Part shown: one piece after another, positions 3,001-62,349 of the stretch | Layout of the letters: each line of letters starts with the position of its first letter | Position numbering within the stretch: the first letter of the stretch is position 1 | DNA from: Mizuhopecten yessoensis | Lineage: Eukaryota | Direction of reading: 5' to 3' | Length of the DNA stretch: 64,000 nucleotides | NCBI RefSeq assembly: GCF_002113885.1 | Contig: NW_018408080.1 | Location: 417,199-481,198 of the forward strand | Made by a program: the position numbers and the translations under genes | The notes under the pieces: model-generated | Seen by the model: the letters and a program-made list of their open reading frames with translations, nothing else | Databases searched by the model: none | What the model was told of the DNA's origin: nothing

Positions 3001-3330
3001 AGTTAACAAACCTGTGTATTAGAGTTACAAAGTTTGTACACTAGAGTTAACAAGCTTGTACACTAGAGTTAACAAGCCTATGCACTAGAGATAACAAGTT
3101 TGTGAACTAGAGTTAACAAGCTTGTACACAAGAGTTAACAAGCCTGTGCACTAGAGTTAACAAGCCTGTGTACTAGAGTTAACATGACTGTACACTAGAC
3201 CTAACAAGCCTGTGGACTAGAGTTAACAAGCCTGTGCACTAGAGTTAACAAGCATGTGTACTAGAGTTAACAAGCCTGTACACTAGACCTAACAAGCCTG
3301 TGGACTAGAGCTCACAAGCTTTTGCACTAG
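1..3330. repeat. 22-bp tandem satellite, ~150 copies, consensus TAGAGTTAACAAGC(C/T)TGTGCAC; runs off the window start
   Basis: 22-nt periodicity is directly visible, with recurrent 29-nt variant units (TAGAGTTACATTGTAACAGGCCTGTGAAC). The array ends at ...TTTGCACTAG, ~3330. No unique spacers. Confidence 0.97.
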
Positions 3331-29720: not shown

Positions 29721-32605
29721 ATATTGAGGAACGAAAAAACTATCAAACACGGGAGGCTGGTATGTTTCTGCTAGGAAAAGGAATGATTACTAATCTGAAT
29801 AATGTAATTCTGTTTGTCATGCTGTCATTCTTTCTTTCCATACAATATATCGCTTTGATTTGAAGTACTGTCAGGTTTTTTGTATGTGAATATTTACTAG
29901 TGAGGTGACAGTTATTGTCCTAGTCAGGTTGTTTAATAAAATTATTTGAAGAAAACGAATCTGTGGTATCTTTAATTTAACGTTCCGCGTATTATTGACA
30001 CCACAACATTTGAATGTTTTGAAAAAATCATTAATCATTGAGATAAGATATAATAAATTGAATTCTCATGCAAACTAAATTATGTCAAACAATTAAATAT
30101 TTATGACTGAAACAATGTTCAGTGAGAGACTGTAAGATTAAAGAGCCACTGCTGTTTATTAATTAGGCGCAACGTAAGACGTACGACTATGCGACAGGCG
30201 AGCTGACATATTCAACGAATGTGTGGTGGAAGATCACAAACATATTACAAAGGTTTTATAACAACGTTAAAAATGGTGTGTACTATGTTAAGTCAATTAC
30301 CATAGGTGAAATTGATCTACAGAGCTGGTTAATTAATAAAACATATTAGGGGACTTGTCACTTGTCAATCAAACAGGACGAGGAGCGTTTGTCTGTGTGT
30401 TACTGGTACACAGATGTCAGGGTCTTTCGTGTCTTAATATTAGTTCAACTGCCATCACTAGCCAGGGGAATATTTCCGGGACGACGACCTGCACCTACAT
30501 GGTGAGTACATGCTCTTTTTGTCTTTAACTAAATATTTATTGTTCCTAACATTTTAACTTCCTAACTATGTACACGAGATAATATTGATAATTTAACAAT
30601 ATCAATACAATGTAAGGTATCATACGAGTCAATTATAACGCTAACCTATAGCCCTTGTCAATGATGATAATGTTACAATAGGGAAACATGACTATCATAT
30701 TGTTTAATATACACACTTTACTCTTTATTATTAATTTAAATAACGAATAAATTAATTATTATTATTTAAATTATTGAAATTAAATATAACTCCTTTCATT
30801 TAATCATTTATAGAAATGAGGAGTTTTACACACTAATACTTGTGATTCAACCTTAGCTAAGACAAATTTGGCTATATGATGCATATATAGTGCCGTTTAT
30901 TTTTGGTATGCCGTGTCTATTATCGTATACTCACCTGCGTTTTAGGTTCCTCCTTAAGTCGTACCATACATGTTTATATACTGCTCTTAATACAGCTTCT
31001 ATATAACAGTTCCTAAAGAAACTTTGATATATCTTTGTAAACGAAGCAAACGTTTCCCATTTGATGTTCTAGAAGAGATGCATTGTTCTGTTCAGTTGGA
31101 TTGGAAGGTTTGTGGATAATTCAATTGTATTGCTAATCATGTGCTCTTAAAACCCTTAAGGACCCATAATGGAATAGTAAAAGTCCATCAGAACAAGAGG
31201 TTTGATATATATTTTTTTCCATTTCTAGTTTGCTTATAAGGGATTCGACACATAGGTGATAGTGAAATGCGATTATCTCTTTCAAAAATGTTTAAGTGAT
31301 GAACACAGAATTTTTGTTTTTAAACACTATGTGAATACATATAAAAACAGTTTAATTTTAAGTATTTTTTCTATATATAAGCTGTGTATGGACTTCAGAT
31401 CGCTATTATCCGAAGATAAAAGTGTTAAATGTCATTTAATGACCGCTGTCTTGTGAACCATAACAATTGATACCAGATGTGTTATCAAACACAGATGTAT
31501 TTTACGTCCTGATAGGGATATGTAACATATGTACATAAACAATATTTATTGAATCATGATATACATTCTGAATTATGCTTTCACACAATTATGCAGTAAT
31601 GTATGAAAAGAGAACGTCTGCAGACACATGAATTGAAGATTTGTGGCAGAGAATATATTTTGTATAAAACCCACTAGTCTCATTCGTAACTTTCCAAATT
31701 CAAGAGTATTGTTGATGAGAATATGTCTGTATTTTTGGGGTATTTATTATGTATTTTTTTATTAAGGATATAAAATGTGCAATGTTTGTTGAAAATATCG
31801 CAAATAATATGTGTTGTTCATACCGGTAAGAATCATACGAACTAAAATTGTAACCTTCCGTCTTAACCATAGGTTTCATAATTTCTTTCGATTTCTTTTG
31901 CAAATAAAGGATTGGACGCAATCAATACCTATTAAACGCTGCAGTTCAATATGGAACAAACGCTGAAGCAAATTATTTTAGATTCTGTCAGATCTGTTTG
32001 TGTACTTCGTCAAATACTTGTCATAGTCCTACCAGCTGTGACCTTGGTGTGACCTCTGTCTTGTGAACCATAACAAGCATCAAGGTTAAAAGCTAAGAAT
32101 TGATAAGCACCATCTATCACTCATATAAAGATCAATTTAAATTCCTTATGGATACTTCCGAGGTGTATGACAATAAAATAAAACAGGAAAAAGTTCTAAC
32201 AATTCCGGATTGAATAAAACTATACAAGCATATTGTTATGAAAATGCACTTGTAGAGTGGTCTAGCCGACTTCTATGTATGCTCGGTGAGCAGGTCGACT
32301 CGGCCGAAGGTGATGAGCTGTCGTGCGTGACAAGATCGAGTGTAGTCTACACTTAATTGGTCAAGCCGCTATACGGACGTTTTTCGCGTACTGTTGGTCT
32401 GATCGTAGATTAAACTCGCCGTTGCAGGCTAACCTCATAATAAGCATTCATATTACTTGTAGCTTCTTACTACAATATTTTGCAAAATCGAATTGCTAAG
32501 TTGAGCAGGCTTGTCATTGTTTAAAAACGAGTTTATTTAACTTGGCCCAGATATTAAGATATTTCGAACTCTGAGACTCCATTGTCTACTACGACTTATA
32601 CTATA

Positions 32606-33380
32606 GTGTTTAGTCTGCATTAAACCCAACAGCACACACAGGTTATACTCTGCTATGTTTTTTGTCGATAAAATAACAAACACTTAAATTGTCGAAAATG
32701 AGCATTTATTCTAAATGCCAGAAATCGAACATATGTATACATATTTGTGTTGATTTTTATAATAAGGTGTACAAAGAACAAAAAAAGATGGGGCTTGCTT
32801 CAAAATAAACGCACCATTTGTAATTAAAAGATGTACAACAAATGAAACAAAATTTAAAACAAAGATGTGCAACAATTACATTGTTACACAATAGTATATA
32901 AAGGTGGATACAAATTAGGGGAGGAGGAGGGTAGCTGATTTTTAAGGAGATTTTTCAAAATGTCAGCATGGACAAATATTCTGCACAGGTCACGTGACTT
33001 TAGTACACCAAAACATCACGTGACTATTTCTATAGGGATGGACTAGTTTCAAAAACGGAAAGTTATCCTCCATCCGGAACCCACAAAATATAACAAATAA
33101 AAATATCATATACATTGTACTAACCAGATAATATAAATTACTTTATGCATTGCATAAATACAATTATATTATCGTGTTTAGTCTGCATTAAACCCAACAG
33201 CACACACAGGTTATACTCTGCTATGTTTTTTGTCGATAAAATAACAAATACTTAAATTGTCGAAAATGAGCATTTATTCTAAATGCCAGAAATCGAACAT
33301 ATGTATGCATCTTTGTGTCGATTTTTATAATATGGTGTACAAAGAACCAAAAAAGATGGGGCTTGCTTCAAAATAAACGC
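32606..33380. repeat. 207-bp direct repeat pair (32606-32812 and 33174-33380)
   Basis: Both copies run GTGTTTAGTCTGCATTAAACCC...CTTCAAAATAAACGC with a handful of substitutions. Offset 568 bp. Confidence 0.9.
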
Positions 33381-33399
33381 CACAAACTTGAACTTAAAT

Positions 33400-33800
33400 A
33401 TAACCATATTTCTGTTCACGTGCCCCACTGGGATACCCCTGCCATTAGCTAACCTCGCCTCTTAACTTTACTCATTATCAATTTCAGGTTCACCAGTTTT
33501 AAACTTCGTATAATAACAGATGTTTGCGTATCCCTTCTGTTCCGTTAGTTATTTGGTCCAAATTGGATTTCCATCCTTTTGGCCCTTAGCCTCACCGATG
33601 ACTCCTAGAATATTAAAACAGCTGTATGATGGAGTGGAATTAATTTTAGGGATACTGTCTCTATTACCAAAGTCTATAGATTCATCCATCGTAGAAGACG
33701 GACACACATCAGATTATTTCCCAAAGTACAACTTGTGATGCAGGAATTATTAAACATTACTGAATACGTAGTTGCACTTTCATATATTTTCGTAATGACT
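33400..33800 (-). mobile_element. Highly decayed LINE (L2/CR1-group) ORF2 fragment
   Basis: Minus-strand peptide KHLLLYTKFKTGEPE...RLANGRG resembles the KLxxYxxFKxxxxxE...RxxLAxxRxG LINE tail motif. Many stops. Confidence 0.35.
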
Positions 33801-34472
33801 TGTCTCTTTCATTTTCTTCGATGTCTGTTTGGAGGGACGCTGACCTCCCTTGGTCAGTTCATTATTTGTTCATGGCTAAACTGCTTGACCAAAGGTAGCT
33901 GACCTTGACATGCCTTGTGATAAGTTAAAGCCAATCAGCGATCTAATTAAAATTAGACTTGAAAGTCCTTACCTAATAATAACCTTACTGTTACGTGTTT
34001 ATAGCGAGATGGAACATGTGGAACCGTTTTGTTTTATAATAAAACATACAAACGTCATACACGTGCTGTTACACGTGCTTACACTAATTAAACCCATACA
34101 CAATTAACTTTATAGTACGTAATGACTTAACACGCTATAGACAATGTACTACAGTGTATTTCCATAAAATTATACCACTGGCACGCATATTTATATATAA
34201 TTAAACTGAAGCATACCATAATTCTTACTCATGACAAATATATTTTATTTTTATATTTACAGACTTACTCTTGCAAAACTTAATAAACAAATGACTGTTT
34301 ACAACTCAAGTTTATTGTTAATATTTAACCACAGATGTGAATAACATGTATACACACGTATTATGCTTGATTTGATGACGTCTTTAGGTAGTTTCATGCT
34401 GTATATCATCCCAAGTGCGACAAAGACGTCATGTGACTTAGGGTTACGAAAATGAGACATAAGCTCCCTAAA

Positions 34473-34506
<34 letters not shown>

Positions 34507-35062
34507 ACAATAAAACAATCTGGTTTTGTGAATATGCTATCTTATCTGGTTATAGAGACACACAGTTGTATCACGGCAAAAGTGTTCGTTGACATGGCAA
34601 AATTGTTAACTATGAAACAGTTGGAAAACAAATAAAGCTAGAAAAAGCGTAAACATATCAAAACAAATTTTAATTCCATTCATCTCCTTCTCATTCATTC
34701 ATCTAACAAACAACAAGAGAATATCGATGTCCACTAAACAACAATTTGAACTCAAAATCGAGTAAAAAATGTTGAAATATAAACAAAGGAAGGATTTACA
34801 TGGAACGCCTAGAAAAATACAAGGAGAATGATAACACCAGGTGTTCCGGAAGGGTAAGCGTCTTCTGCTTCATCGACGTGATCCGCCATGTAAATATAGG
34901 TCAAACCAAAGTGTTGTCACATCATCATATGGAAAACGCGGCTAACATAGGCTATCATTTCAAAGATAGAAATGATATTTAAAGAAAAAAAATGAATTAG
35001 TTCTCTAAATTAAATAACCTTATTTCAACTTTCATCTTGTTTTCTTTCCATTCACGGCAGGA

Positions 35063-38000
35063 ATGATGACGACGGTAATTTTGTGCGTGTCCTTGACCCT
35101 GGCTGGCCTTTTTAGTTGTTCTCTCTCATCGCACGTGCCCACCAGTGTAGACCTCGTATCGAACCTTATCAAGATCTGTGTTGAAACAGCAGTTGAACAG
35201 ATAAACTCCGAACTGACGGTCAACCACGGTGGTCATTCAGCCGGACAACACTCTTCACATGGACAACACTCTTCACATGGAAAACACTCTTCACATGGAC
35301 ACCAAGCCCAAGTTATGCACGCGCCTGGCAACAAAGCACACAGTGGACACTCCAAAGGTTAGAGAGTTCCATGTATAAGATCGAAAGCACTCCAAAATGT
35401 TCAGTATACATTAATTACTTTATTCGTTGGGTTAAACACCAAACTGGAAATATATTAACACGTGGTCGGCCTAAGTGTTTTATTTCCTCGTTTGTTGGAA
35501 TTCGCTTACGGCATGACGCATATGCTCTCTGTCTCGACTTAATAAACGTTTTATCAGTGCCTTCTCACTTCGTCTTTTTAAGTGATTATCATACTTTCTT
35601 TCTTTCAAGAAAATCAGATAGGACCGTCGATGGAATAGGATTAGTTTTATTTTCGACTTTCGAGAGAGAAAAAGAAAAGAAAAAAAGGAGTTCTTTAAAT
35701 GTTTAAATACAAGTGTTTATCTTCACATCCTTGTAGGTCACGGTCACATGGATCACAACGAAGGTGGTCACTCGCATGCGCACGTGCGAATTCTAGATAG
35801 GAATGCTCGTGTCATAAGACGAGTGCAGGAAAACTTCAGAAAATTGTAAGTGTATTAGTAAGACAACACAGTGAAAATGTAATGCAACATTGAAAAGGAT
35901 ATCGCTGTCGTAATAGCGATGTTAATTGTAAGCTTCCAAATGGCGTTGCAATGTGAAGGATATTTGTCTTAATGAATTGCTTACGTTTAGGCACGAGTGC
36001 ATACCATTGGGAGTTATATGAATTCGATACGAATGTTTTATAGGTAATGGATTCTGCAAAAATAATTCCCATTTTTGATGAATGATTAATAAAATATTTT
36101 ATTGAATTGATCGTTTAGGACCGGAGCCTGGCCGGAAGCCATCATGAAAGACGAGATGTTGAAGAAGGAATGGCGAAAGCAAGTGAAGCCACATTGTGAT
36201 TTCATGGCGCCAAGTTTCACGTGTGACGCTTCGGCTCGGTACAGGACCGCAGACGGAACGTGTAATAACATGGCCCATCCTTTATGGGGTAGTACCATGA
36301 CGCCACAAACTCGGTTTCTGCCACCGAAATACGAAGACGGTAAGTGATATGTGTTAAAAATGAAAGCAAACTCGTCATGATAGTAAATTGGAAGTCTTTA
36401 CGCGCAATAAACCATGGGGAGAAATGAGAACTAGGCATATTGGATATTGTCGGTAATATCGGAACAAATACGTCGTTTTAAATATAGCCGTGAAAATGTG
36501 TTTGATTCAGAGAAAGGTAAAATAGACAAATGGTTAATATATATACAATAGATAGCCATTTACACTTTCTTAGTCTACAGATGATCAGTGTTTAAATTCG
36601 AATAGCACCAGAAAACGAATTCAAACTCAAATGTTAGTGTTGTGATAGCGTTTTTAAAAAATGGCGCGACGTGCGACGACTATACATTCTGTTTTGGACT
36701 ATAGGAATGAATTCACAACATAGAAATACTTTTTGTCATATAAATTTTAAAGGTTATCATAAAATGTTAATATGCTGACAAAAAAATATTCATTTGACGT
36801 GTAAGATACTGCAAAATGCAAGCCTTGATCCGATTGGGGTCCTGGTAATGATGGTTTGGTGATCCGATTTGGGTCACCTTACTTAACAGCTACCAAAATA
36901 GCCCCTACCGGACATCTTTTCGGCAACATTTCGGACAATACACAACCATATTTATAATTAGCACCCTAGTGGCCCCCTCATTGGCTGTTTCGTTAAATTT
37001 GCTGTCAATTAAGTAGGCTATTTTATCCTGTGAATGATTGGCACACCTCGGACGCTTGTGTGTGTCGGACGCCATCTTTGTTGCTATGAAGAGAGATTCT
37101 AGTTTGATTTATCTCCCCTCGCACGTGCTTTTATAGACCCCGGCAGAGCGGGGTATATAGAAATATAGACCCCGGCAAGATATCTTATCAGATAGAGTGT
37201 TACAAGTTAGAAGGGTGACACAATTAAACATGTTAAAAAATAGGGATTCACTTCGTACATTATTACACGTTCATATTTTAGCGGTATTCTAGATTTAAGA
37301 GTCTTTGTATTGCGCTTATTGAAGGTTCTGTATACATTTTATTGCATATATCATGAGAGCGCCAATTCATCAATGACATAGTTTGTTAAAATTAGATAAT
37401 AACCTTGAATTTTAGACCGCTAAAGGATCACTTTTATAGTGTATATTTCTTACTCTGATTTGCAGAAATCAACGCACCACGGACAAAATCGATCAACGGG
37501 AAACCACTGCCGAGTGCTCGACTGATTAGTAACGTTGTCCATAGCAACACAGGTCATAGTCCAGTGTACAGTAAAAAGAGCACTAATATGTTCATGGCGT
37601 ACGGTCAGTTCCTGGACCACGATATACTCCATACACCTGTCCTGAAAGGTAAATTTACACGCCGACATGTATTACTCCGAATTCAGACTAGTCACATTTT
37701 TTAAGAGTCCCTGTTCCGCTCCTCTGTGATTTTTTTTCCATAATCATATACAATACTGTGACCTCTCCTTAATTTCGTAGTACCATCTATGCTGACCAGG
37801 TTTGGTTGTGGTGTGGTTTTAATTTGTCCCTTTAACAGCTAATGTCATTTAAGAACGTACCTCCGTGTGTGGTATGTATGCGTGCGTGCGTGTGTGTGTA
37901 TGTGTATGTGCTGGAGACAGGGTATGTTGGTGAACTTGCCTACTTATTATTGAGTGGATCTGATGACAACTTTATAGTGTTATCTTACTGAAATGCATGT

Positions 38001-41000
38001 ACGATGCCGACGGCACACAGCGCAGCATTCCGTCGGTTCGAATGATAGAATACAAAGTCTAGTCCACGCGGAAACTCTACATTCAAAACACTGAGGCTGA
38101 TTACCTTTTTGTTTATTTCATCTCCATTATGTTTTCCCACGCAAGTCCCACAAGCTATATTTTATTTTTATAAATGATTTCTCAAAGCTAACGTGATTCC
38201 ACAATGTCTTTAATACGCATGCGCAGTTACAGTTGTTGTCAGTGGTACGGGGATCCTTGATTGAATGTTATCTAAATACCATGATCGATTGTTTTAAATA
38301 CTCAAACAGAAATATAGAACATGATGCTCATTGAAATATCATTAGATTATGTATCAAGTATACTTAAGCTAATTTCTTTTATCAACTTAATTAGTATTTT
38401 ATTTATTTTGATCAAAACTTAAACCAGTTGAATTTGGAAATAAAATGGTAAAAGTTTGATGAATTTTGATTAAATTATTAAAAATAATCAAAAATCTTTT
38501 TTCTATAAAGATACTACTGAAGTTTGGGCATGATCTTGTTGTCAGATTGCTGATATCAAACATGTTGGTATTTTCATATCGTCGTATTGTGTAAAGCTGG
38601 TTTGCCATTTTCACAAATATCAGACATATATCATCAGAAATCTTAAGTTATATCCCTCAGTTTATTTCGTCACACATAAATGATCTCATTTGAATATTTC
38701 TGTATTTTAGATGATAACGGGAAGGATATGCAATGCTGTCCGCTGGGAAATAGGGAGTAAGCAAAATTTTGCAAATCGACTATTCTGTATAAGTGATCTA
38801 ATTAATAAAGAGAGTTTCAAATTTGAGTTTTGCATAATAAGGATTGTAATACTGTAAAAGTGAACATTTTTGCGGTGAGGAAATATTCGCGCGATAATAT
38901 CTGCTATTAGTATTTAATTATACACCTTAAGTCAATTGTAAAGATAAATGTATAGCTTATATAGATTATAGATGAAAAGATCGATAGATTTGAGTAGTAT
39001 TACAAACGCGATAATTTCCACACCGCGATTGCTTTAAAGGGTAACAACGCGAACATTTCCACACGCGAAAACTTTCACTTTAACAGTAATGAAAACGAAA
39101 ATTCAACATTTCAACTGAACAATTTCTTTTTGAATTAATAAAAAAGAGGACAAATTGTACAATGTTAAGTTGAGCTTGAAGTGAACCTTGCCATGACTAG
39201 CCCCGTTTACTTTGCAGTGAACATTGCTTCCCGATTGCAGTCCCCCTGGATGATCCTATGTTCCGAGGATGGTGCATGAGTTTCGTACGATCATCAGCCA
39301 CGCCTCTCCCGAACTGTGACCCAGGTAATACACCTAATGACACCTGTAAATTAAACACCCATACACGAACGTGAAACATGAATTCAATTACAATCATTGA
39401 ATGTATTTGAATAATTTAGATCGGTTTTGATTAAAATGTATTAAATTATTTTCTGCGAAATTTTAGCATATATCTGCAATGTTAAACAATGGATGCACGT
39501 CATTTAGTTTATGGGATTGCATAATCACCCATCGTGACGTCAGTATTAAGTCAATAGACCTGACTGCAAGATGGGAAATTGAAACAAGTGTTCAGCGAAT
39601 AATTGCATACATCTTGATAATTGATAAAAAATATATCTGGATTTGTTTCCATGTAATAAGACATATATGAAAATCATCCTCACCTTTTTATTACTAGACA
39701 GACCCGTGGTTGAATTGAAACCTACAGACTTTGTGTATCAATAACATCGTCTTAATATAGTAAATTGTACTATAATTGTGCATGAAATTAAGCTACAGAC
39801 AGGATAATACAAAGACAGAATTAGTCAGGACAACGACATTATGCTAATTAAATCTAAATTAAATGTTGATTTTTGTTTCAAAATTTTGATTTACAGGGCA
39901 TCGGGAACAAATGAATCACCCTACGTCTTATATAGACGGATCTGCCATATATGGCTCCAACAAAGTACACCAGGAAGAGCTTCGCCTCCATCACCACGGT
40001 ATGGTCACGTATGGTAGAAATACAGGACCTTACACGAATGGCTCCGTGTCCTATTGAACTTATCAAACGAGTTCAATAATTTGATATGACACGAGCCTTT
40101 AGTAGTGTCATATTTTATTTATTGGACGAGGTTTGATATATTCAATAAGATATGGAAGAGAATGTAAGATTTAATTTATCAAATAATTTTAATAGTTTCA
40201 ATAAAAACTTTTAACAAAATTATTGTTATCAGATGATTTTATATAGGTTAAAACCGAAGTACTTTGATCATAGTAATGTCGTTCCGCGCAGTTCAAAGTA
40301 CTTCCAGATTAAAAAAAAATGAATGGTTTTAAATGCGATGAATTTAATAAATAAAAAAAAAAACACAAAAAGTATTTCAAATATATTTAAAAAACCCAGT
40401 AAATATATCATGCGGTAAAGTGAATAAAGTAGTTCCTGTAGTGGCGTGGGAATATGTTCCCACGTTTTTGTCCAATCGCAACACCTTAAGGTTTTATTAC
40501 ACGTGTGTGATACCATATTTATGACATGGCCGTATGACACAGAAAAATGGGCCAGTTATGTTATAATATAATTTATGTGATAACATGGTACTGACTATAT
40601 ACATGTAAATATTTCAGGAATAGCCATTATTATTTTGAGGGTTATGATGTATATGCCAAATATACTGTTTGCATTTTCATAAACCCTGGTTATTCATTAG
40701 AAATAGAAAAAAGACAGACAACACTTTATAGTTCGTAGTAATAAATATTTCTTATAAAAAAAATGTTTTTGCACAAAATACAACATGGCGCTGCAATTTC
40801 ATAATCGAGCTACCGCCACCAATCAGAAGTTAGTTACAAATACCGCGCCAAATATTGCGGTATACGTCATCACTTTTTGTGTTTACCTTTTCTTAGTTTA
40901 CACGATATGAGCTGCAAACGTTCAGCAATATATGAATATAAACAGTATCTGAAAAACACTTTGAATTAACTTACTTGCAATTAAACTGAATCTATTTGGT

Positions 41001-44000
41001 GACGATTGCTGTAATTATCAACCATTTTTTAACGTTTGCCGTAAAGTTTCTAGTAAATCATAATTTTGAAATTGTTTTTAATTTTATTTCACGATGAATA
41101 TGATTTGACAGGTATACCAAAACTTATAGCATAAAGATTTAAGACCATTAGCCAACGAAATAATTGGACTACAGATTGTATACGGGAGTCATGACCTTTT
41201 GGTGAAACACAAATGAACAAAATATGTTCGCTGATTTGTATGCGTGATGAAGGTTGTTTATGCTAATGACAGTATTACATTTGATTTGTAGGTCGTATCA
41301 AGCTGTCGGCATCAGGACATCTCCACAGCGCTCCGGATAACGAATGTATTCTGTCATCTCCCGGACATCACTGCTTCCAGTCAGGTATTGGCTAGGGCTG
41401 TCACATTATATCGAGAGACCGGTATGTCATAATTCGCAGGCATATCGTATCGTATCGTATCGTTTCGCAATGCAGAAATGGAATATCGCTGTATCGCAAT
41501 ATTTTTCAATGGCTTATCTTTAAATGTCTTCTAGGTGTTTTGACCTTGTAACACATTTTTCTAGTAATCATAAACTGGTAATACCATGATCAGCAGCTGG
41601 TTATTTTTTAAGCTATTTTTCCCTAGCTAATGAAGCGAGAAGTGATCGCAATACATTCCTCTTATATTACAAAATATATCGTGATATGCGATTTGTGACG
41701 TCCCAGGTATTGGCATCAGACATCCCTGTCTTAGTGTCTAAACTGGTCTATTATGTATACTGACCGGGACACAAGTTATGTTATTGTATTTTGCTGTTAA
41801 TACATTTGATTGTTTTAAATTATTTTGGAAATGGCGACGATGTAAACGTAGAATATATTCAATATCAACTATTAAAAAAATTAATGACATTTGGTTAAAT
41901 GATTCACGGGTTTAGCTGTAATTGATGTTGTCTTAACAAAGCATACAGATAGAGCCGTAAGAAGTGAATTAATTTATCAACACATGACTTTGTGTACGAA
42001 GGGCGGTAGCTCTTAGATAAATAGAGAAAAATCACTACAGCGTCAAATATCAAACAGGGAAATACGTCTACCTTGTGTAATTGTAAATTTAAAAAGGTAA
42101 GAATTTGAAATGGAAAACCATTAAATATTATATAACATATAAGAAAGAAGGTACGTAATCTCCGAAATCTACATTATTTCAGACATTTGAAACACTTAAT
42201 TGCAAAGTCCATAAGCGTATCGTTTCATTCAACTGTATTTTTTGCAATTTAAATTAAAAAAATAATATATTAAAGTTTCACTGTGTGCATAGTAAAACCG
42301 ATTAAAAAATTCGAGCACTGTTTCCTAGAATTGTGATATCAAATTAAAATGGATAGACTCCACAGCTAGCTTTTAAGACAAGACACTTTGTTGTTAATGG
42401 AAAGTATCAGAACATAAGCGGTCTTAATTTCTATTCGACTAACTCCAGACAAATATTTATAAAAGTGAAATTTGATCAACTGCAATCAAGATGACATAAC
42501 CATTGGATTTGATATGGCAATGCGTTTATTAAATAATAATTATAGGCAGGTTAGCATTCTAAAAAATAAATTAGAACATACATGTTGTCCATACGTTTCA
42601 GTGTTTTGATTTATGTGATAACAAAGAAAACATGTTCTTATTGAAACGGCGATAAGTCCCCGCAAATGATGCACTGCCAAAATACCCTTACACACGAAGT
42701 TGGAGCCAAATTAGAAAAAGGCAGGGACCGTTGTCATCCCCTTGACGTACCCCAATAAATGTATTTTAATAATGAGAAGAAACGCATCGATATCAATAAA
42801 TCCCCCACTTCGTTTGGGAAACTTAAGGAAAAGTCATTCAACATGTTACATGGTACGAATATTTGCACTGTTGAAAAAAAAACTGTATGTACAATCCTTT
42901 CTCTATAGGTGATGGTCGTCGTCACGTGACCCCGACGTTGACGTGTCTACATCTGTTGTTCGTAAAAGAACACAACTACATTGTCGACACGTTACGGACA
43001 TTGAACCAACACTGGGACGACGAGCGGCTCTTCCAGGAGGCAAAACGAATCGTATCGGCCGAGCTACAACATATCGCATTCTCAGAGTATCTGCCGATTG
43101 TCATTGGTCAAGAGCATATGGACCAGTATGGTCTTTACCCAACGACACACAGCTACAAGACGGTGTACGACGAAACGGTCGAAGCCTCCACATCGAATGC
43201 TTTTGGTGCTGCGGCGTTTCGATTTGGACATTCTGAGGTTCCGGGAGTTTTAGCGATGATGGCAAGAAATTACAGTCTCATTAAAGCAATTCCTCTCCAC
43301 ACCCAATTCAACAGACCCGATCTCATGTTTGATTCTAATGGAGACGAAAACCTGATGAGGTGGATGACCAATTCTTACCACGACCGGAACGATCGTCTTC
43401 TACAGGATAGTGTTCGAAACTTCCTTTTCTTGAAGGATGACGGAGAGAGTTTCGATCTAGCTGCCATAAACATTCAAAGGGGGCGTGACCACGGACTTCC
43501 TCCCTACAACACGTGGCGGAAGTGGTGTGGTCTACCGACTGCCTTACATTTCGGGGAGAGACTCGGGAGACTTATTGACCACGACCAAGCTACAAGAAAA
43601 CTCTTGTCTAAAGTATACAGGTGCGTATACAATGTTCACCACCAAACGCCGATTTAAATGTATTTTGAATATGGTGACGTCAGAATACTGATAATCAATA
43701 AATGCCACATAACTGAAGAATGTGTATTGATTTGAGTGATCTGCTTTCAAAACGTTAAAAGGTTGGTTTCAGTTTAGCTTATTATAGGACTAGAACTTCC
43801 GATGGTAGTTGTTCTAGTTTCATCAACCTCAAAAAATACATACAATTTTGATATTCTGTTAAATTGCTCAATGTGTAAAAATTAAATAGTAAAACAATTA
43901 TGAAACGTGAAGACGAATCTAATTCAATTCCAAACACCTAAAACTAAAATACGCCTTTAAATTTAAGCATGCATATCAGTGTATCTCTAAATTCGTTATA

Positions 44001-47000
44001 AATAACGATTGTCTCCCTTGACAGTCACCCGGATGACATAGATCTCTACACAGGAGGTCTGTCAGAGATACGTCTTCCCGGCGCTGCGACGGGTCCCACG
44101 TTTGCTTGTATCATAGCAAGACAGTTCAAGAAATATCAGAGTGGAGATAGATTCTGGTACGAGAACGATGACGCGGAAAGCAGGTTCACACTGCGTAAGT
44201 AGAGTACAGGACTTTAACTTCAATGGAATGAAAGTATTACAGTTAATAATATATGGATGCTAATAATTCATTCCTGTGTGTGCACTTTTCAAATGTGTCA
44301 CTTATTCGTGTATACTTGTCAAATGTGTCATTATTTTGTTTTCATTCTTTCTAATTCATCACCAATTTGTCAGCTGGTTTCTATTAGTTTACAGTTAAAT
44401 GAAAATGTTAATTGAACAATCTAGAGGTTGTTTCAACTTCATCTTGGAATTTTTCTATGCATACGTAGGTAAATATAACCTAATTGATCTAAAATCGTCT
44501 CAAATATGAAAAACAGCATTATCTATGGGTCGTTTTTTGAGTACCTGGTCACAATATCACAAAATCCTAGCTTGAGCTTAAAGTTTATGAAGGGTTAAGT
44601 TTGATCACATTTCGTGAGCTTTTATTTTTTTGGGACGGGGCAGTTATCAGAAACACTGATTGTTCACGGCAAGGAATAAAACAACAGAAATCAAAAACAA
44701 TAAGGTGAAATCAGAGTGTATTATTGGTTGCAGTTTTTAAGGCTACAGCCTATTGAAAATTATTTCAACGTTTTGAAAAATGGGAACAATTGTGACGACT
44801 TATGAAATATTTGTCACCTGATATGATACCGATTTTTTTTTTCTTCATCAAAATATTTACATTATATTTAAATTTGGATGCCGTAAAAGTAATATGTCAT
44901 GTTTTGTTTTGTTTTAAAGCTCAGCTGAACGAAATCAGGAAAACGACCCTGGCTTCAGTATTGTGTAAAAACACCGGTACACAAGTGACTCAACCATCAG
45001 TATTCCTAGCTAATAACGACTTCAGGTATGTTATCATATTTAATGGATTATCAATTCTGATATCAAACCCTAAAAGAGTACAGTAGGACAAAAAACTCAA
45101 AGAAACAATTTAAACAATAATTAACATAGTCTCTCAAATAAGTACCACTCACAGGTAGCATTCGGCGACCTCCTGATTACCTTACTCAGTCCTTACTGAG
45201 ATCAGTAGGGGGCTTCAGACTAGTTTGGTGATTTTGTCACGTCACCCAAATGTTTTACTTATTTCGGTTTTTGTTTTATTTGTAAAACAATAAAAAACGG
45301 AGTCAAAATGTAAAATTCTGTTCCTTATTTGGATTCCTTGTTGACATATACTATTACAGTAACACAAAGTGATTTGGGCAATAAGTTAAACTCTTGTTCC
45401 ATTTTTATGACAATCGACCAAGTGAAACTAAAACATTTTATCGATAATGCCTCAGCCAAGCAGAAATGAGAGCACCAATTCACAATTATGAAAGCATTCA
45501 TTGTTAGAATGTCAGGTCAAAATCAGCCTGACGGAGTTAAACAGGAGTTGAAAATGTATCTGTCGATCAGACAACAGGTTGAACATCTTTAATATTTAGA
45601 TCAGCTCGATAGAGGATACACTTTCTTTAAAAATAAAAAGCACTGTCCCTGGTTCCGCTCTGATAAAAGTCACATTCTTTTTTTTTTTGCACAATCATTG
45701 CATCCCATACGTCCTTGAATGCTTTGTACACGAAACCAAGGTTTCAATTTCTTCCCATGTACTGAAAGATTGCTCTAAGAAATTATTAAGGATTATCTTT
45801 TAACTTTTCTTTGTTTATAGTAATAAATTAAGTCCAGCACGCGGTAAATTGCATGAACGCGAAGCGACTTATCTTTAAATGCTGTATTTGACTTCGCCCC
45901 TCATGTCCAAGAGGTACAATAGCAAATGGGATATTGAATAGTATAGATCAAGAGATTGTTAATATCTGTTTAGGTGAAATAGTTTCATCTGCACCTAAAG
46001 AAGTCCTTGTATATGGTTAAGCGTAATTTCTTCCTTTAGGTCTTTTGTTCTTAAGGCGACAACATGCAACAGCGATACAACATTGTATTCAATAGGTCCA
46101 TGGGAAAACACAAAGAGTAAACATATATAGAAGTTTTACTACATTAACAACTAATATACAATGACTATACCTTATAGTCGCACAACGATAACCAAGTCGA
46201 ACTTGCTTAATCTTCGCCAATTCTATTAAAAGTTGTATTCTCCCGACAGTACTGAACCTCTTCACTAAAACTAAATTTAAAAAAAAAATCGGGCTTGCAG
46301 CTTTCACCTAACATGAATAGCAATTAGGACACAACAGATGCCTTGCCTAAATCTCATGCTGATGAAATTAGCACCAGCCAACTGCTGCCATTCATGTTTT
46401 CACCATTTTCTTCAAATGTTATCATAACTAAATGGCTATAATCTAACGGCATTTTAATTTTTCAAAATAATTTTATAATTAAAAAAAAAAGTCAAACTGA
46501 TCGATCCCCCCCCCNACACTGTTATGCATCTCACATCCCTTAAAGAGAAAATACATTTATGCATGGACGTTTTAACCATATTTGGAGGAAAAGTGTAAAA
46601 TTAATACAGAAATAGATATTTTTATTAAAGGTGAATAACTCTTACATCCCCATTCCTGTTTGCTCATTTATCGCGTTGTACCATGTAACATAAAAAACAG
46701 AACGTAGAATCTTAAAAGAGATCTTAGTCAGTCAAAAGGACCACAGCATGAAGATATTGATATCATTTAATGATTTTCCATATATATAGAGAAAAGGATA
46801 ATGATATTTGAATTATTTTATCACTATTGCAGCAACAGAAAGGTTTTGTGCAGTCAGATTCCTTCCATTGACCTGTCGTTTTGGAAGGAACACAGTGAGG
46901 CGGGCAGTCATACATTCCAATCACCAATAAGCCCAGTGTCCTTCCTCAATCCACTGCAGAGCCCTAATAGTCCATACGTTTTCAAGGATGTCTTCAACAA

Positions 47001-47043
47001 GTTATTGCAGAACCTACGCCAAAGAATGCTCGTCAAAGTATGA
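35063..47043 (+). CDS. Secreted animal haem peroxidase (peroxidase-cyclooxygenase superfamily; chorion peroxidase/peroxinectin-like), 784 aa, 12 coding exons: 35063-35357, 35737-35845, 36119-36339, 37466-37648, 38711-38756, 39218-39324, 39897-39998, 41292-41384, 42909-43620, 44025-44194, 44920-45025, 46833-47043
   Basis: All junctions are GT-AG and phase-compatible; the total of 2355 nt is open. Motifs: signal peptide, YRTADGTCNN, LPSARLIS, GQFLDHD (distal His), CMSFVRS, REQMN..TSYIDGS (Ca site), GDGR (catalytic Arg), AAFRFGHS (proximal His), DLAAINIQRGRDHGLPPY, DDIDLYTGG, GDRFWYEN, IDLSFW. Confidence 0.93.
37798..38070 (-). mobile_element. 5'-truncated SINE (Meta-like domain, internal (CA)n, AACC-type tail) in a peroxidase intron
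   Basis: Minus-strand tail CGTTCTTAAATGACATTAGCTGTTAAAGGGAC...AACCAAACC. The central CTTTATAGTG...ACTGAAA resembles the Meta-SINE domain as I recall it. Confidence 0.55.
38850..39088. mobile_element. MITE with TACTGT...ACAGTA ends in a peroxidase intron
   Basis: TACTGTAAAAGTGAA / TTCACTTTAACAGTA, with repeated subterminal CGCGA(A/T)...TTTCCAC motifs. Confidence 0.75.
40028..40170. repeat. ~140-bp imperfect palindrome (end of a dispersed repeat) just after peroxidase coding exon 7
   Basis: TATTGAACTTATCAAAC / GTTTGATATATTCAATA arms, inner ATATGACAC / GTGTCATAT and outer CTTACA / TGTAAG. Confidence 0.65.
41393..41706. mobile_element. hAT-like MITE with 8-bp TSD GTATTGGC, inserted at a splice donor
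   Basis: GTATTGGC at 41385-41392 and 41707-41714. Ends TAGGGCTGTCACA / TGTGACGTCCCAG. (ATCGT)n subterminal repeats. Confidence 0.8.
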
Positions 47044-50100: not shown

Positions 50101-52730
50101 ATCCAACAAAAACGTTTCATTTTCTCTAAATTTCCAAAACACAATTGGATTACTGATAGTCCAGGTGAACCCAATAACAAGATGAAAGTGACCATATACA
50201 TAAATTAGCCATTATCGAATCTCGATCTCTGCAGACATATATCACTCTTCCCCATTTATTAATCAATGCTTGTATACGTAAGCAAAAACCAAGTAACTTG
50301 TTGTCGTTTTTTTCGAGATCTGGGGGAGTAATAACAAAACAAAATGGCAGACCATTGAGTAATCTCTCGAAACCCTGTGTTGTAAGTCTGTCCGTCAGCG
50401 GTCGACATCAGTCACAGAAATTCTAATATGGAGGAATTCTATTTTATGGAACTTACATGATATCATACTGTATATCATGATAATGTACACATTCTGTTTT
50501 TTTCAATCAATAACATTATTGATATGTGCGGGTTTAGTGGAGTTAATCGAGCAAAATTATTTTTAAGTTTGTTGAAAAATGGATTCGAACAAAACCTCGA
50601 AATTTTATATTTTGTGTGATTGTTATACATACAAGTGTGACGTCATCGCAGTGACCTTTTGTGAAATTAGAAAGAGTGTTAATTCAGATTTTTTTTTTCA
50701 ATCAGTAGTTGTAAAGTAACGGTATGTAGACATCTTGTCACTAGTACTCTATTTCCACTTGTTTCGAAAAACTTAAGAAATACATTTTCTTCGTTCTTTC
50801 GACTCTTAGTAACACTGATGAGTCAAATTTGGCCGATATGCCCATATTGCGCTGCAAAACATTTGTTTTACTTTCGACATGCTATATTTTGTAATAAGTG
50901 CTTTGTTTGGTTTATTTCTTTTAACGTCATATACACAGCTATAGTCATTTAAGGTGGGTCCATCCTTCTCAAATTTAGCGCCACTGCGCAGGAAACTGCG
51001 CATGGTGGCTAACTTTCAGTATGATTTACGGTAACCTAACGACACCACGCTTGGATTTAAAAACTGTTATCGACAATTATTAACAACAATTAAGAACGTC
51101 AAAAAAAAAAAGAAAACTATCTAGTCCGACCATCTTTTATATTTAAATAAACGTATTTAATGTGATATTGAACTCTTGTAAATAAGAACTTAAGTCGTTT
51201 ACACCGGAAGTTTACTATCGCAGCTGATGTCAGCGATATGACAGCTGCTGAGGATGAAGTCTGAAAGTGAAAGAATATGTGCTTTCCGTTGTTATTGCTC
51301 ACTTATCTACATGTTGAATAGAACAAACGATAATCAGAAGTTTTCATCACCTGAACGGAATAGGTCATTTCGTACGATGGAATAATTATGACCGTCACCC
51401 ATCACACTGACGGCGACACTTCTCTACTCAAATGAACAGCTAAAGGTCTCGACGTTGAACATTTCATTCGAAGCATTACAGCAATTCCGTCCTGACTGTT
51501 GACAGAGATTTTGTTCAGAAATAATTAATAAATGGCGGTGTAAACAGCTTCAAGTGATCGTCTGAAAACTGCAACTGAAAATAAATATCTCGAGTCATCG
51601 TCAATGACACCAAGGAACCATACCGAACCGACACGAGTAGACGGGTTGCCACAATGAGGTAAATATAAAGTGTCATATTATATAGTGCACAGGCGTTTGA
51701 GCAGATTGTTAGATTGTTTACTTTTTATTATACTCTCAGCAAACCCCTGACCAAACTTTTTTTCACGTAGGTCATCAGTGCGTTTCTCTGTGTACCAGTT
51801 GGGGGTTTCCTTCCTTTAAGTTGTAATCTCCGTTTTAGACAGTGACATTTTGCTGATCAGGTTACATTTCAACTCTAAACATCAAAGCAACATTTTATTG
51901 AAAGATTTCAAAATTAGTAAACAAATCACTTTGCTTCTTATTGTATTTGTAGTGTATTGTGTATAGTGTATCATATTTTTTTTGTCAAATTAAATTCATA
52001 TCTGAACAAATCAGAGTAATTTTTTAAAAGATGCATGGTTTGTTTTTCATTATTACAGGAAGTAAGGACAGAAAGTAAAATGCAATAGGCCAAACCTGGA
52101 TATATCAAATCATAGAGAATAATTTATAAGGACATAGGTCATCATAACAAGGGTGGAAAATGAATATGATAACCAGGCAATAGCAAAGTAACAACAGATA
52201 ATTTGATAAATGTCATATCAAATGTGACAAAACCCCATATACTAAAATCTATCATTTGAAAATGAATCTGTAAAAGCTGCTGCTAATGTCTCTTTTAGTA
52301 TATTTAGTCTCTGTGCTGAACCAAGCATTCACCAAGATTGATTTCTGGTGATATATTAATCAAGAGATGAATTAAAATTTTGAAAAAAAATGTAATGGTG
52401 TAAAAACTTGGAAATGGGACACTGGTGGGCTGACTTACTTCCTCATAGAGTTAGCAAAACATAGTATACATGTCATAATTTTCAATATGGTTTGTGGAAT
52501 AAGCTGTTATTAAAATTTATTTTGTATTCTACATGTATATATATATATTTCTAGCTTATCTACTACATTGAACCATGAAAGTAAATATTATCAATATTTA
52601 TCATTCCTGTAAGTTTGGTTGACCAGATATAATTATGCAGTATTAGTATAATTTAATGCAGTCATTTCTAAATTATGACTTATGTACATGTGATTATCAA
52701 TAAGATATATTGAAGCACTATAATTATGTA

Positions 52731-53281
52731 CAGTCACTGGCCATAAGTATTGGCGCATAATTGCGACGTCATTAAGTGAATAAAATGTATTCCTATCGTT
52801 TTCAGCTGTATCTTTGCCCAAATAACACGTATTCTTACAAAACCAGTACCGGAGGTAGGGAATTGCGTATACACTCAAAAAGAGTTATTCACCTTTCTAT
52901 GTGTTTATATTGTCGTCTGCCCGTCAATGGTTCCAAAAAGCCGAGAATTGACCCCAGCCGATAAAGAAAACATTGTAAAGTTGTCTAACAGTGGTCTTTC
53001 GGCTCGAAAAATTGCAGGATTGTTAGAACTTAAAGCAAGAACCGTACAGATTTTTTTGTATAGTCTTTGTGCTATATTCGGAACCTATATGATACACTAC
53101 TAAAGTGATTACGAAGTGTACTTAGAGCTAGGGGACAGATAACAAAGTACTGAAAATTTCATGTAAGTAACTTCTTTATTTATTGAGATATTCCACTTTT
53201 AAATATTCCCTCCCTTATAAAATCTTAGCATTTACAAATATGACGTCGCCGATATGCGCCAATACTTATGGCCAGTGACTG
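52731..53281 (+). mobile_element. Internally deleted Tc1/mariner element (551 bp) retaining the transposase N-terminus
   Basis: TA flanks. 29-bp perfect TIR CAGTCACTGGCCATAAGTATTGGCGCATA (42 bp with 3 mismatches). ORF 52927-53103 reads MVPKSRELTPADKENIVKLSNSGLSARKIAGLLELKARTVQIFL, a Tc1-type HTH. Confidence 0.88.
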
Positions 53282-54780
53282 TATATAGTCATAATTATAT
53301 ATAATTATACATGTAATTGTAATTTGGATTCTGCATAATAGGTTTTTGTTACAAATCATTCAATTTATTTTTCCTTTTTTTACAGGAATGTTCTAGGTCA
53401 TGGATATTAAGCAGAAAGCCTTATGTAAGAAGACACCAGGATGGAAACAAAACTCTGGACAATTTAATGCGAGAAAAAAACCCAAATGCATAGGTCCTGT
53501 AAATGTGTTATTAATTTGATACATACAATTCATACTACAATGTACATACTCCGAAGACAAACATTCCTATCTTTGCTTCTAATCCTGTTTTTATGTTTCA
53601 AAAATGCGATTTGATTAAAATCAATGTAAATTTTCAAAATGTGTTTTATTCATTTTTTTCCCGTTATAAAATGACTAAAATACATAGTAAGTTAACTTAG
53701 TAAATATTAATAACTTTCCAAGAATGTATTTCTCTGTGAATTTTCAATCAGGAATTCTGGTTGAGATTCATATTCAGAATCTGATATTACACTTGTAGTT
53801 CATTCTCAAATTCAAGATATGTTTACTTGTGTTATGAATGAGAGTTCACAGAACTACGTTGTATTAGATTCCAAAATCTGCATTCATGCCCCCCCCCCAC
53901 ACACACACACTCTGGATTCAGCTTGAATACATTGCATGTGTAACCAGATGCTTTTGTGCTCATTTGAAATATACATGTAAATGGAAAAGATTTTCAAAAA
54001 TTAAGCAGAGGAGCTTTGAACTTCGAAATATTGATTTTTATTTAAGTTCCGAGCATTAATGCTATTTGATTTTAATGTATATCAAATATAAGTGTGGTGA
54101 CACGATAAAGTATTATATTTTTGACGGTATGGATAATAATATGACATAAATTTGCCTTTTACGCATTAAAATAGGAATAGGCAAAATGGGGTGGGGGAAT
54201 GGAGTTCTAACTTCAAGTGAGCGAAATTGCAAAATTTTCACCGGGAACCCCACATTTTTTTATGCTTACCGAAAATCATATATACTTGGCTGTCTTCTGT
54301 AAAAGTTTTATAAAATTGACATGGGTTTTGATCGCATTTTTGTTTGTTTTTAATGCATTCGTTCGATGTAAATTTGTTAAAATTGAACTTTGAAGAGAAT
54401 AGATGGCCAGGAAATATGCATAAATATACCAAATATAATCATGTTTGTTTTATTTCTGCTTTTGATAGTACATCACATTATATATATATGTGGAAATTTA
54501 TATATTTTTTAATGAAAATATTACTCAACGCTTTGTAATTGATTCAAAATAAAACTTCAAGTGCAAAATTACATAGCTTGGTTAAATATTCGTCTGGCGC
54601 TTTGATGAATGATCTCGCGTCATGACGTTAACAAATTTCAAACCACAAACGTCCTTGGATTATCTTAAATCAGCATATTTCCCTGTATCGCGTCAGGAAT
54701 TAAGACTTTTTTTATATAAAACTGTTCATATACATTAAACGGTTGTCATTGCGTAATGGAAACAGATCGTATTAAACCAA

Positions 54781-59382: not shown

Positions 59383-62349
59383 ATGATGTTTCGTGGCCTG
59401 TTGTTTTCATCTATCATCCTGCTTCAACTGGTGTGTAAAGGGCATTCTACATCAAATATAAACTCTCTGTTACTGGCCATCAGAAATGCGATTATATTAC
59501 CATTGAACGAGGCCAACGCCGGGAGAAGCCTCTTCAAGTCAGATGCAGGTAAACACAAATTTACAGAGCGTTGAACTAACAATTCAATTCCATTACATTA
59601 AATTTTTGTTTTAGCATTTTTTTTATATGCAGCTTGACATGATTTATCAAAATTACCAAGAACACTTCCAAACATAGCATGAAGCATATTTGAAATTATG
59701 TCATTTATTAATTTGGTCCCAAACTATTCCCCTTCATATCCCGAAATGGTCTTCAAGATGACATTTATTTCATGTGCTTTCGTGACGGCATAACCATAAG
59801 GAATGTTTAATCAAACAACAAAATTGGCATTCATCTTTTACAATTATCGATTGTTTATTTACCAAATTGCAGGTTACATTAAGTTATGTTTCTAGTGTTT
59901 CTTTGGTTGGTGTGCCTGCCGTTTATGCAGTATCTTGTTACCTTTCTGAGTGGATCATTTTGATACTACTTTTATTGTGCTTTCCTTGATGTGTTTGACC
60001 TTTCGGTTTCTGTTGCTGCAATGCTACCTCTGTTTTTATAACAATGGTCGTTTGGTGCCTTTCGTTGTCTTTCTGAATCAACCTCTCGAAATTTAAATAC
60101 ATGCTTACATATTTCGTATCTTATCTCTGATATCGAAAGTTCTAAAATTGCTGTCTTTTGTTAACTCCTGTTATGTCTTTGTGGCGTTTTTTGGCAACCC
60201 CACTTAGGCTAGCTCAGGTTTTTAGTTATATTTTGATTGTAGTTGCTACCATGTTTGGTATATTTGCAACCACTTTGTATAATCTTAAGTTTCTGATGGA
60301 AGCCACATGGTGGCTTAATCAGTATAATAAATATAATGTCACCCTTTGGTAGGCCATTTCACTCACATTTGTTGTTTGAGTTATTCTTGTAATGGGTGGA
60401 GAGGCATAAAAGGCAGCTAAGCAATTAGCTTAATTTATGCTCATAACACCATAACAAGTTTAAATTTGTTATCTAACTGCTTTAATTGTAAGGGTTATTA
60501 TAAGTTAGCAACATTAATATTACAATATCATGGAACAAGACACCTTAATGGTTTCTGAAATTATTGGAGGTTATTGATTGGCTGCTGATGACGTAAATAT
60601 GGATGCTGGCCCCTAATTGGTCAAGGTGACCTGAGGGTCGCGTCCCTTTGTTCATAAGGCAGCCATCTTGCGAATCGTTATCATCAGATCTAACTTGATA
60701 TTTAAAACCCATCTACTTCCGACCCTCAGTTTTTGTGGTCAATACAAAATTGACATTTTTTGTGATGTAACCATCAATAAGGCTAGCTAAGATGGCGTTT
60801 GCAATTTTGGTGGCAACTCCACTAGCTAAGGTTTTTAGTTATTTTTTATTTTATTTTTTATTTTAACATGTATAATTTGTAACCTGGCAGTTATTTTTTG
60901 ATTGTAACATGTATACCTTTTAACCTGGCAGGTTGTTGCTAGTTTGTGTTAAAGTGAGACAACACTTGCCGACTGGTCAGAGCATTGATTAACAGGGTTG
61001 GGGCAGCCGGCTCGCAGTATATAATGTAAAGATGGGTCTAGTGAATAGTTCACATATATAAACAGAAACCCCGTAGTGGACTCGTAAATGTAACGCATAA
61101 CTGAAGATGTTAGCAGCCAACTCCCGTGGGGATATTCTGTTATCACAACAACTGTTACCTCCAATCTGAAGCACAACAATATGACAATATTTTAAAACTA
61201 TGACCTAACACCAAAACTCGTAATTGTATAAAAGCCATGCTAAAAGAAATGATAAAATACTTAAGTTTCAGGTCTCAGAGTGATGTTGACTCCAGGGTCA
61301 CACCCAGGTTCAAGGGCACTTTAAAAGTCACGGCCACGGCTGTCGTTACCTCACAGGAAACAATAGGGTACCCAAGCGTCACTAATGAAAGCTTGCCCGT
61401 ATTCGTTCGAAGCAGGAAGAGAAAATTCGAATGACTCGGTCGTAATAATTAAGTTTTTAAATATCAAGTTAGATCTGATGATAACGATTCGCAAGATGGC
61501 TGCCTTATGAATAAAGGGACGCGACCCTCAGGTCACCTTGACCAATTAGGGGCCAGCATCCCGATTTACGTCATCAGCAGCAAATCAATAACCTCCAATA
61601 ATTTCAGAAGCCATTAAGGTGTCTTGTTCCATGATATTGTAATATTAATGTTGCTAACTTATAATAACCCTTACAATTAAAGCAGTTAGATAACAAATTT
61701 AAACTTGTTATGGTGTTATGAGCATGAATTAAGCTAATTGCTTAGCTGCCTTATATTGTTGGTGATTAAGGCGTCCTTATAGAATCTGATATATAGAAAA
61801 GGAAAACGAATGCTTCAATGTTGCCGAACGATGATGCACAGTTCGAGTATGACTAGTGTTTTGTTTATCTATATATAAAATTGAATCAATCATGGAGAAC
61901 AAGTGATTATTGATGTGAACGATACTCGAAGATCAATCTGAATACGTAATCACATATACATTTCTAATTACAACATCCTTGCATCTGATTTCCGTTCATT
62001 CATTGATTATTTGATTTAATGGACCATCTTACGTAGTTTTTGCTTTTGCGATTTTCTTTTCTTATCACATGACTTGTATCATTAAATATTTCTTGTGTTT
62101 GATGTTTGAATACTATTTGCTAATATGTAAGTTTATTTTGGGAATATTTTTGTATTTTTCCTAATTTTTAGGTATTATATATGTTTTCATGCAGTCAATT
62201 AAATATATCTTTTTGTCATTTGTTTGATTGATTTGACATTTACCAACTGCCGCGTATGCAGAACTACATCGACAGTCGCAGCTTTTGGTCCTATCCTTAG
62301 ATCGGAACGCACAGATAATGCAGAGAGCTATGATAATCTTCAAAAGAAC
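59383..62349 (+). CDS. Second haem peroxidase paralogue, 5' part only (coding exons 59383-59548 and 62262-62349; continues beyond the window)
   Basis: Same layout as peroxidase 1: AG|NN-ATG-ATG, signal peptide and a phase-1 donor. The next exon (phase 1 to phase 2) encodes LDRNAQIMQRAMIIFKR, versus LDRNARVIRRVQENFRK in the equivalent peroxidase-1 exon. The catalytic exons are not in the window. Confidence 0.75.
60410..61752. mobile_element. 1.34-kb non-autonomous DNA element with 298-bp TIRs (60410-60707 and 61455-61752) in a peroxidase-2 intron
   Basis: The arms are reverse complements with only ~6 visible mismatches. No credible internal ORF. TSD is ambiguous (possibly TA). Confidence 0.9.

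Follow-up and report, generated by a model that had tools for sequence, protein, structure and literature searches.

How cross-linking enzymes are stored together with their substrates, and how they are retained once they reach seawater, is an open question in molluscan biomaterials, and the role of shell peroxidases has been called enigmatic in one account (PMC6641155). A gene of the Yesso scallop, Mizuhopecten yessoensis, puts this question in a concrete form: why should a predicted secreted haem peroxidase carry a stretch in which 30% of the residues are histidine (His)? Here, we describe the gene as it lies in a window of 64,000 nucleotides of contig NW_018408080.1, that is, the whole stretch of DNA that was analysed, to which all positions refer (Table 1).

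Table 1. Coordinates of the His-segment gene and of the first exons of its neighbouring paralogue
Feature	Position	Strand	Remarks
5' non-coding exon	30375..30501, start approximate	+	X3 and X6 contigs have loose ends ahead of 35060 that map to 30471-30500; a GT donor comes next
Coding exon 1, ATG at 35063: signal peptide, helix 1, start of His segment	35061..35357	+	
Likely signal peptide, ~residues 1-23	35063..35131	+	Judged by eye; hydrophobic helix, residues 3-20 in orthologue model
Predicted pro-region helix 1	35147..35218	+	Argopecten orthologue model, helix 29-52
His-rich segment part 1, residues 55-98, length varies among species	35225..35357	+	
3x18-bp tandem repeat, encoding three 6-residue units with two His each	35243..35296	+	
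Phase-1 intron within His segment	35358..35736	+	Joint in X1, X2, X3, X6
His-rich segment part 2, residues 99-114	35737..35783	+	
Coding exon 2: His core, predicted helix 2, RxxR at residues 123-126	35737..35845	+	
Coding exon 3: last part of pro-region, first part of peroxidase domain	36119..36339	+	
Coding exon 4: Gln256, Asp259, His260, Asp261	37466..37648	+	
Coding exon 5	38711..38756	+	
Coding exon 6	39218..39324	+	
Coding exon 7: calcium-site motif 330-336	39897..39998	+	
Coding exon 8	41292..41384	+	
Coding exon 9: Arg389, Val392, His493, Asn573	42909..43620	+	
Coding exon 10	44025..44194	+	
Coding exon 11	44920..45025	+	
Last exon, coding part, predicted C-terminal helix	46833..47043	+	3' UTR to ~48880
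Adjacent paralogue P0116, first coding exon, no His-rich segment	59383..59548	+	
Adjacent paralogue, second coding exon	62262..62349	+	Gene runs beyond window end

The gene (35063-47043, plus strand) has 12 coding exons, separated by introns that are all of the GT-AG type, and encodes 784 amino acids with no internal stop. Its top database match, at 85% over the large exon, is a protein of Ylistrum balloti whose cluster also includes proteins of Pecten maximus and Argopecten irradians. When scanned, these three orthologues covered the PF03098 profile from end to end (1-530 of 530) at 585-590 bits, the cut-off being 25, and the spliced M. yessoensis protein, which is placed in the family through them, shares 448 invariant columns of 576 with them in the catalytic domain. 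On these grounds, the protein is assigned to the animal haem peroxidases (PF03098).

Alignment recovers the distal residues Gln256, His260, and Arg389, the proximal His493, Asn573, the ester-forming Asp259, and the calcium-site motif at residues 330-336 together with Asp261; the roles are assigned partly from a lactoperoxidase alignment. Position 392, which in lactoperoxidase is the haem-linking Glu, is Val in M. yessoensis and its three orthologues, so that of the two ester links typical of vertebrate-type peroxidases the Asp is present and the Glu absent. The same replacement is seen in many bivalve paralogues, Val also stands here in 38 of 335 motif matches, and the adjacent paralogue retains the second haem-linking Glu. 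The enzyme is likely to be active, with one covalent haem link, and it is predicted to be secreted; 15 of the 23 signal peptide columns are invariant among the four orthologues.

Some smaller features of the gene should be recorded. The last ~20 residues (46950-47040) form a predicted helix behind a low-confidence spacer and are well conserved in the four orthologues. Cys39 (35177-35179, in helix 1) is likewise invariant in all four and has no obvious partner among the listed cysteines; an inter-chain link is possible. The 5' leader contains two upstream ORFs (30414-30437 and 30499-35066), the second of which reads Met-Glu-stop, is created by splicing, and has a stop that overlaps the main start codon.

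The initial annotation described 18 His within 60 residues, a segment that spans an intron, and a near-perfect 3x18-bp expansion, and all three descriptions stand. Residues 55-114 contain 18 His, 12 Gly, and 10 Ser (30% His, 20% Gly), the remaining 670 residues contain 33 His, and no shuffle of the whole protein reached 18 His in 60 residues (5000 shuffles, maximum 15). The intron at 35358-35736 is a GT-AG intron of phase 1, with its joint found in four runs, and the repeat at 35243-35296 consists of three 18-bp copies with one mismatch. The segment has neither Tyr nor Cys; Tyr is absent from all four orthologous segments, which carry 0-1 of the residues C, Y, W, F, L, and I. With the pKa of His taken as 6.5, the computed net charge of the segment in the four species is +11.0 to +16.6 at pH 5.5 and -0.7 to +1.4 at pH 8.1.

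Where in the protein the segment lies can be judged from the Argopecten orthologue, which was modelled with AlphaFold2 from an alignment of 82 sequences (mean pLDDT 88.5). This model has a helix at residues 29-52, a low-confidence stretch at 54-106, and a further helix at 104-132. The pLDDT is below 50 in the loop and 87-95 in the flanking helices (residues 31-50 for helix 1). The segment is predicted, therefore, from this orthologue to be a disordered internal loop, rich in both His and Gly, between conserved pro-region helices, rather than a terminal tag. From residue 137 onward, the part submitted to fold searches, the model matches myeloperoxidase and lactoperoxidase with Z scores of 41-44 and an rmsd of 1.8-2.6 over 541-563 residues. 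None of the solved chains covers the pro-region; those of lactoperoxidase and myeloperoxidase align only from residues 137-166 on, placing the loop upstream, at the position of the propeptide. A profile made from 22 other pro-regions, which includes the first catalytic-domain residues, matches the scallop helices at 63-74 bits. Compared with the two vertebrate enzymes, then, the scallop proteins have the same whole PF03098 profile, the same fold, the same distal and proximal residues, one ester Asp, and the same calcium motif, whereas the ester Glu is Val in four of four and the pro-region, which contains the His-rich loop, is of a helical type found in invertebrates.

The segment was expected to be kept in close orthologues if it had a function, and it is found in Ylistrum, Pecten, and Argopecten alike. 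Between common anchors there are 18 His in 66 residues in M. yessoensis and 13 in 52, 15 in 52, and 17 in 62 in the other three (25-29% His), and by this comparison the segment is conserved across four scallop genera. The His enrichment extends to the catalytic domain, where His makes up 5.2-5.9% of the residues in the four scallop proteins against a median of 3.2%, all four ranking in the top 6 of 121 homologues; the whole M. yessoensis protein has 52 His, and members of the clade have 46-52 each. The tandem repeat, to which the initial annotation gave weight, is absent from all three orthologues. As judged from the alignment, it is a recent product of local slippage in the variable half of the segment and is not needed for the function proposed below.

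Evidence of transcription comes from assembled contigs of sequencing runs, denoted here by coded labels. Runs X1-X6 were found by means of the gene itself and are guessed to be RNA, none being recorded as such, with GT-AG joints marking spliced molecules. Contigs of X1 and X2 carry joints for all 11 coding introns, and those of X3 and X6 carry the first two introns as joints, including the one inside the His segment. Splicing through the segment was thus seen in four of eight runs, from three studies, and the presence of the segment in transcripts is borne out. X4 covers 35083-35294 only, and X18, which runs through introns with no joint, appears to be genomic. Two raw M. yessoensis RNA runs with unlabelled tissue, X22 and X24 (~12 and ~11 million reads, respectively), contain essentially zero exon reads, which fits restricted expression. 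As for repeat-number polymorphism, which the initial annotation named as a check, the repeat is spanned without a gap, in three copies, in X1, X2, and X6, and the contigs of X3 and X18 break off within it, a possible sign of another allele.

The adjacent paralogue shows what the loop was built from. The gene that starts at 59383 agrees exon for exon with P0116, a peroxidase-like protein on record for M. yessoensis, and has the same phase-1 and phase-2 introns as the His-segment gene. It was first described as having no such segment between the homologous flanks, which is correct as regards a His-rich segment, but a linker of 26 residues does exist between the same helices (69 in the His-segment gene). 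Linker length in the His clade is 69, 55, 55, and 65 residues, whereas a trio of more distant paralogues has 40 and the sister clade 26-31, and growth has taken place on either side of the shared phase-1 intron. By this reckoning, the segment has taken the place of an existing linker and enlarged it, rather than being inserted where there was none. For paralogue P0046, folding from the single sequence gave a mean pLDDT of 32, too low for a comparison of linkers in three dimensions.

A quick tree built from 55 catalytic domains unites the M. yessoensis gene with its three orthologues in a clade (SH-aLRT 99) that is sister to the clade of the adjacent paralogue (support 100), and this set contains no orthologue from outside the scallops. 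On this basis, the loop likely arose in an ancestor of the scallops, once a tandem duplication had taken place. Nothing else in their own genome matches the His-bearing exons, and hence no donor for exon shuffling was found. At least 11 His per 40-residue window occur in only 5 of 240 usable homologue N-termini (from 271 proteins), namely, the four scallop proteins and P0179. Searches with the N-terminal region returned the scallop cluster only (1 of 46 candidates, and none of 52 that were shorter), and from the ESM Atlas came generic peroxidase clusters only, under 0.9. Taken by sequence, these genes make up a clade specific to scallops and encode haem peroxidases that are predicted to be secreted and to have a disordered, His/Gly/Ser-rich loop in the pro-region.

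Two other peroxidases met in these comparisons are unusual in their own right. P0179, on a distant branch, has a His/Arg/Lys-rich N-terminus, a His-rich tail, and a larger share of His in its catalytic domain than any other protein compared, an independent case of His enrichment. The third peroxidase of the cluster, P0092 (G000:C4753:507525-508232, minus strand; L003), has lost the distal His motif and has an altered distal Arg motif, and is possibly non-catalytic.

What might such a loop do? From its composition, we propose that it is a handle that binds metal and is switched by pH, helping to pack the enzyme into acidic vesicles and, once secreted, to hold it in the matrix; we put the chance that this is right at about even. 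In an acidic secretory vesicle the loop would be strongly cationic and the enzyme soluble and stored beside its substrates; when the vesicle contents reach seawater, the histidines would lose their charge; once deprotonated, they could bind Zn or Cu, or couple to oxidised phenols; and the loop would then tether the enzyme in the very organic matrix that it is cross-linking. This matrix is more likely to be mantle-derived (periostracum, shell, or ligament) than to be adult byssus. The main doubt concerns processing: if the protein is cleaved at the RxxR that follows the loop, the loop is unable to anchor the mature enzyme. A further point against the proposal is that the segment, in contrast to the proteins of squid beak and Nereis, has neither Tyr nor Cys. 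We offer only tentatively, as a doubtful elaboration, that the loop and the His-enriched catalytic domain together load the peroxidase into pH-triggered condensates that Zn or Cu then lock into the matrix, which would give the enzyme a His latch like that of byssus and make the protein a convergent fusion of a sclerotising catalyst with a structural His domain. Should the loop prove to be a pH- and metal-dependent anchor, it would provide a ready design for self-immobilising enzymes, and the His-loop gene and its loop-less, Glu-keeping tandem sister form a natural matched pair in which the effect of a His loop can be seen.

Histidine-rich peptides can bind haem, and the loop might instead serve before secretion or act upon its own enzyme, with the pro-region assisting folding, haem or metal binding during maturation, or pH gating, and then being shed or retained; we regard this as unlikely. 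The loop occupies the vertebrate propeptide position, conservation in the flanking helices equals that in the catalytic domain (35 of 45 columns invariant in the helices after the segment), and the invariant core of the loop falls where many relatives have a His-containing motif followed by Phe, a match of position only. According to PMC10679500, the myeloperoxidase propeptide aids folding and haem insertion, and vertebrate enzymes shed the propeptide region that corresponds to the loop. A comparable cut could be made at the RxxR present downstream of the loop in four of four orthologues, or at dibasic pairs further on; however, all of these lie within predicted helices, the RxxR in a confidently predicted one, and the pro-region contains no R-x-K/R-R site. 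A role in maturation must also allow for paralogues that fold with linkers of 26-40 residues that are not His-rich, and it leaves the extra His of the catalytic domain unexplained.

A low-complexity expansion tolerated in a loose linker, in which His, Gly, and Ser are harmless and His has no specific job, is in our estimate quite unlikely; if true, the locus would hold an ordinary low-complexity linker. The stretch between the helices does vary in length, from 55 to 69 residues, and includes a species-specific repeat, a Gly-to-Val change is present at 35229 in one run, and in mussel and oyster members of a wider 16-row clade (support 98) the same linker, as read by eye, is expanded with Gly, Ala, Ser, and Pro, so that this site seems prone to low-complexity expansion, of which His would be the scallop version. 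The ordinary linker of the paralogue trio is even more conserved than the loop (32 of 40 columns invariant and no indels, in three species). Yet the histidines are retained as well as residues of the catalytic domain are, even as their neighbours change: among the ungapped columns of the segment, 11 of 14 with His are invariant versus 11 of 32 without, for which the Fisher P of 0.0096 is overstated because the aligner favours His-His pairs. In 60 shuffles of the segments, 3.0 of 12.8 His columns (maximum 7) and 1.2 of 27.7 others were invariant, compared with the 11 His observed, although shuffling also removes shared ancestry and this comparison does not bear on neutral descent. Drift also has to account for a conserved core at residues 101-114 (12 of 14 invariant, ungapped, 5 His) beside a first half of variable length, and for a His fraction and a near-zero charge at pH 8 that are held in four genera despite the change in length.

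The initial annotation also considered a cleavable antimicrobial propeptide, and a His-rich antimicrobial or metal-sequestering peptide, cut out or exposed beside an immune peroxidase, is improbable: although the segment is cationic at acid pH, has an RxxR downstream, and is part of an animal haem peroxidase, a family in which immune enzymes exist, an internal loop requires two cuts, no dibasic or RxxR site lies between signal peptide and segment in the four orthologues, and the segment is near neutral at the pH of seawater and nearly devoid of C, Y, W, F, L, and I.

The proposed handle has precedents in other proteins. Lottia DGLSP, PLSP2, and PLSP3 are peroxidase-like shell proteins to which long stretches of low complexity are joined; such peroxidases rank with the most abundant proteins of the Lottia shell and have been proposed as matrix cross-linkers (PMC4094399). 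Like the scallop proteins, they combine a secreted haem peroxidase domain with biased sequence that is predicted to be disordered; the Lottia extensions, compared here by description, are terminal, run to hundreds of residues, and are rich in Gly, Ser, Asp, Lys, or Asn, whereas the scallop has an internal His loop of 55-69 residues. Histidine-rich proteins of biological materials stay in solution under acid conditions and become cross-linked upon deprotonation, and the His content of one of them, NVJP-1, is 27 mol% (PMC9999432). With mussel preCol, Nereis NVJP-1, and the squid beak HBPs, the loop shares high His and Gly and a computed charge switch with pH, and we claim no homology. These proteins are structural and have Tyr or Dopa in or near their His domains, in contrast to the scallop protein, in which the His sequence is one short loop of an enzyme and has no Tyr.

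A place in the byssus, the first material suggested for the enzyme, is unsupported, though a role in the juvenile byssus is possible. Mass spectrometry found two peroxidases in the byssus of another scallop, Chlamys farreri, CF54475.1 and CF54475.2 (PMC5700196), which are likewise secreted PF03098 proteins and which nothing ties to this gene. PMC9168380 gives CF54475.2 as a two-domain model of 1374 residues with 2.8% His, or ~39 His, and it was excluded as an orthologue on this count, which is below that of any clade member. In the same source, the table of the foot secretome lists five peroxidases and marks none as His-rich, and their ORFs have 1737, 2226, 2229, 2424, and 4125 bases, as against 2355 for the M. 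yessoensis gene. The adult Yesso scallop makes no byssus, and its paired peroxidase stands at 0.0 TPM in both juvenile and adult foot. A Polydora mantle proteome table lists three peroxidases, none tied to this gene.

In the literature, subscription journals and some supplements being outside the scope of the search, no paper was found that gives the accessions of these orthologues or of the Yesso scallop entries nearby, and none that deals with a His-rich bivalve peroxidase. The enzyme family and the pairing of a peroxidase with a low-complexity extension are already known; the His-rich loop appears to be new.

The rest of the window contains several further features. On the minus strand, 7259-7621 and 14322-15224 are two interleukin-17 domain exons (PF06083, 50 and 45 bits), the second of which continues into ~200 acidic, semi-repetitive residues, an unusual tail for an interleukin-17. 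A satellite array with a 22-base unit, in ~149 copies, occupies positions 1-3330. At 52719-53293 there is a small element with 54-base inverted ends and a fragment resembling the helix-turn-helix of a Sleeping Beauty transposase (a weak match, below cut-off), and at 60406-61756, within the first coding intron of the paralogue, lies an element with inverted arms of 319 bases that are 95% complementary.
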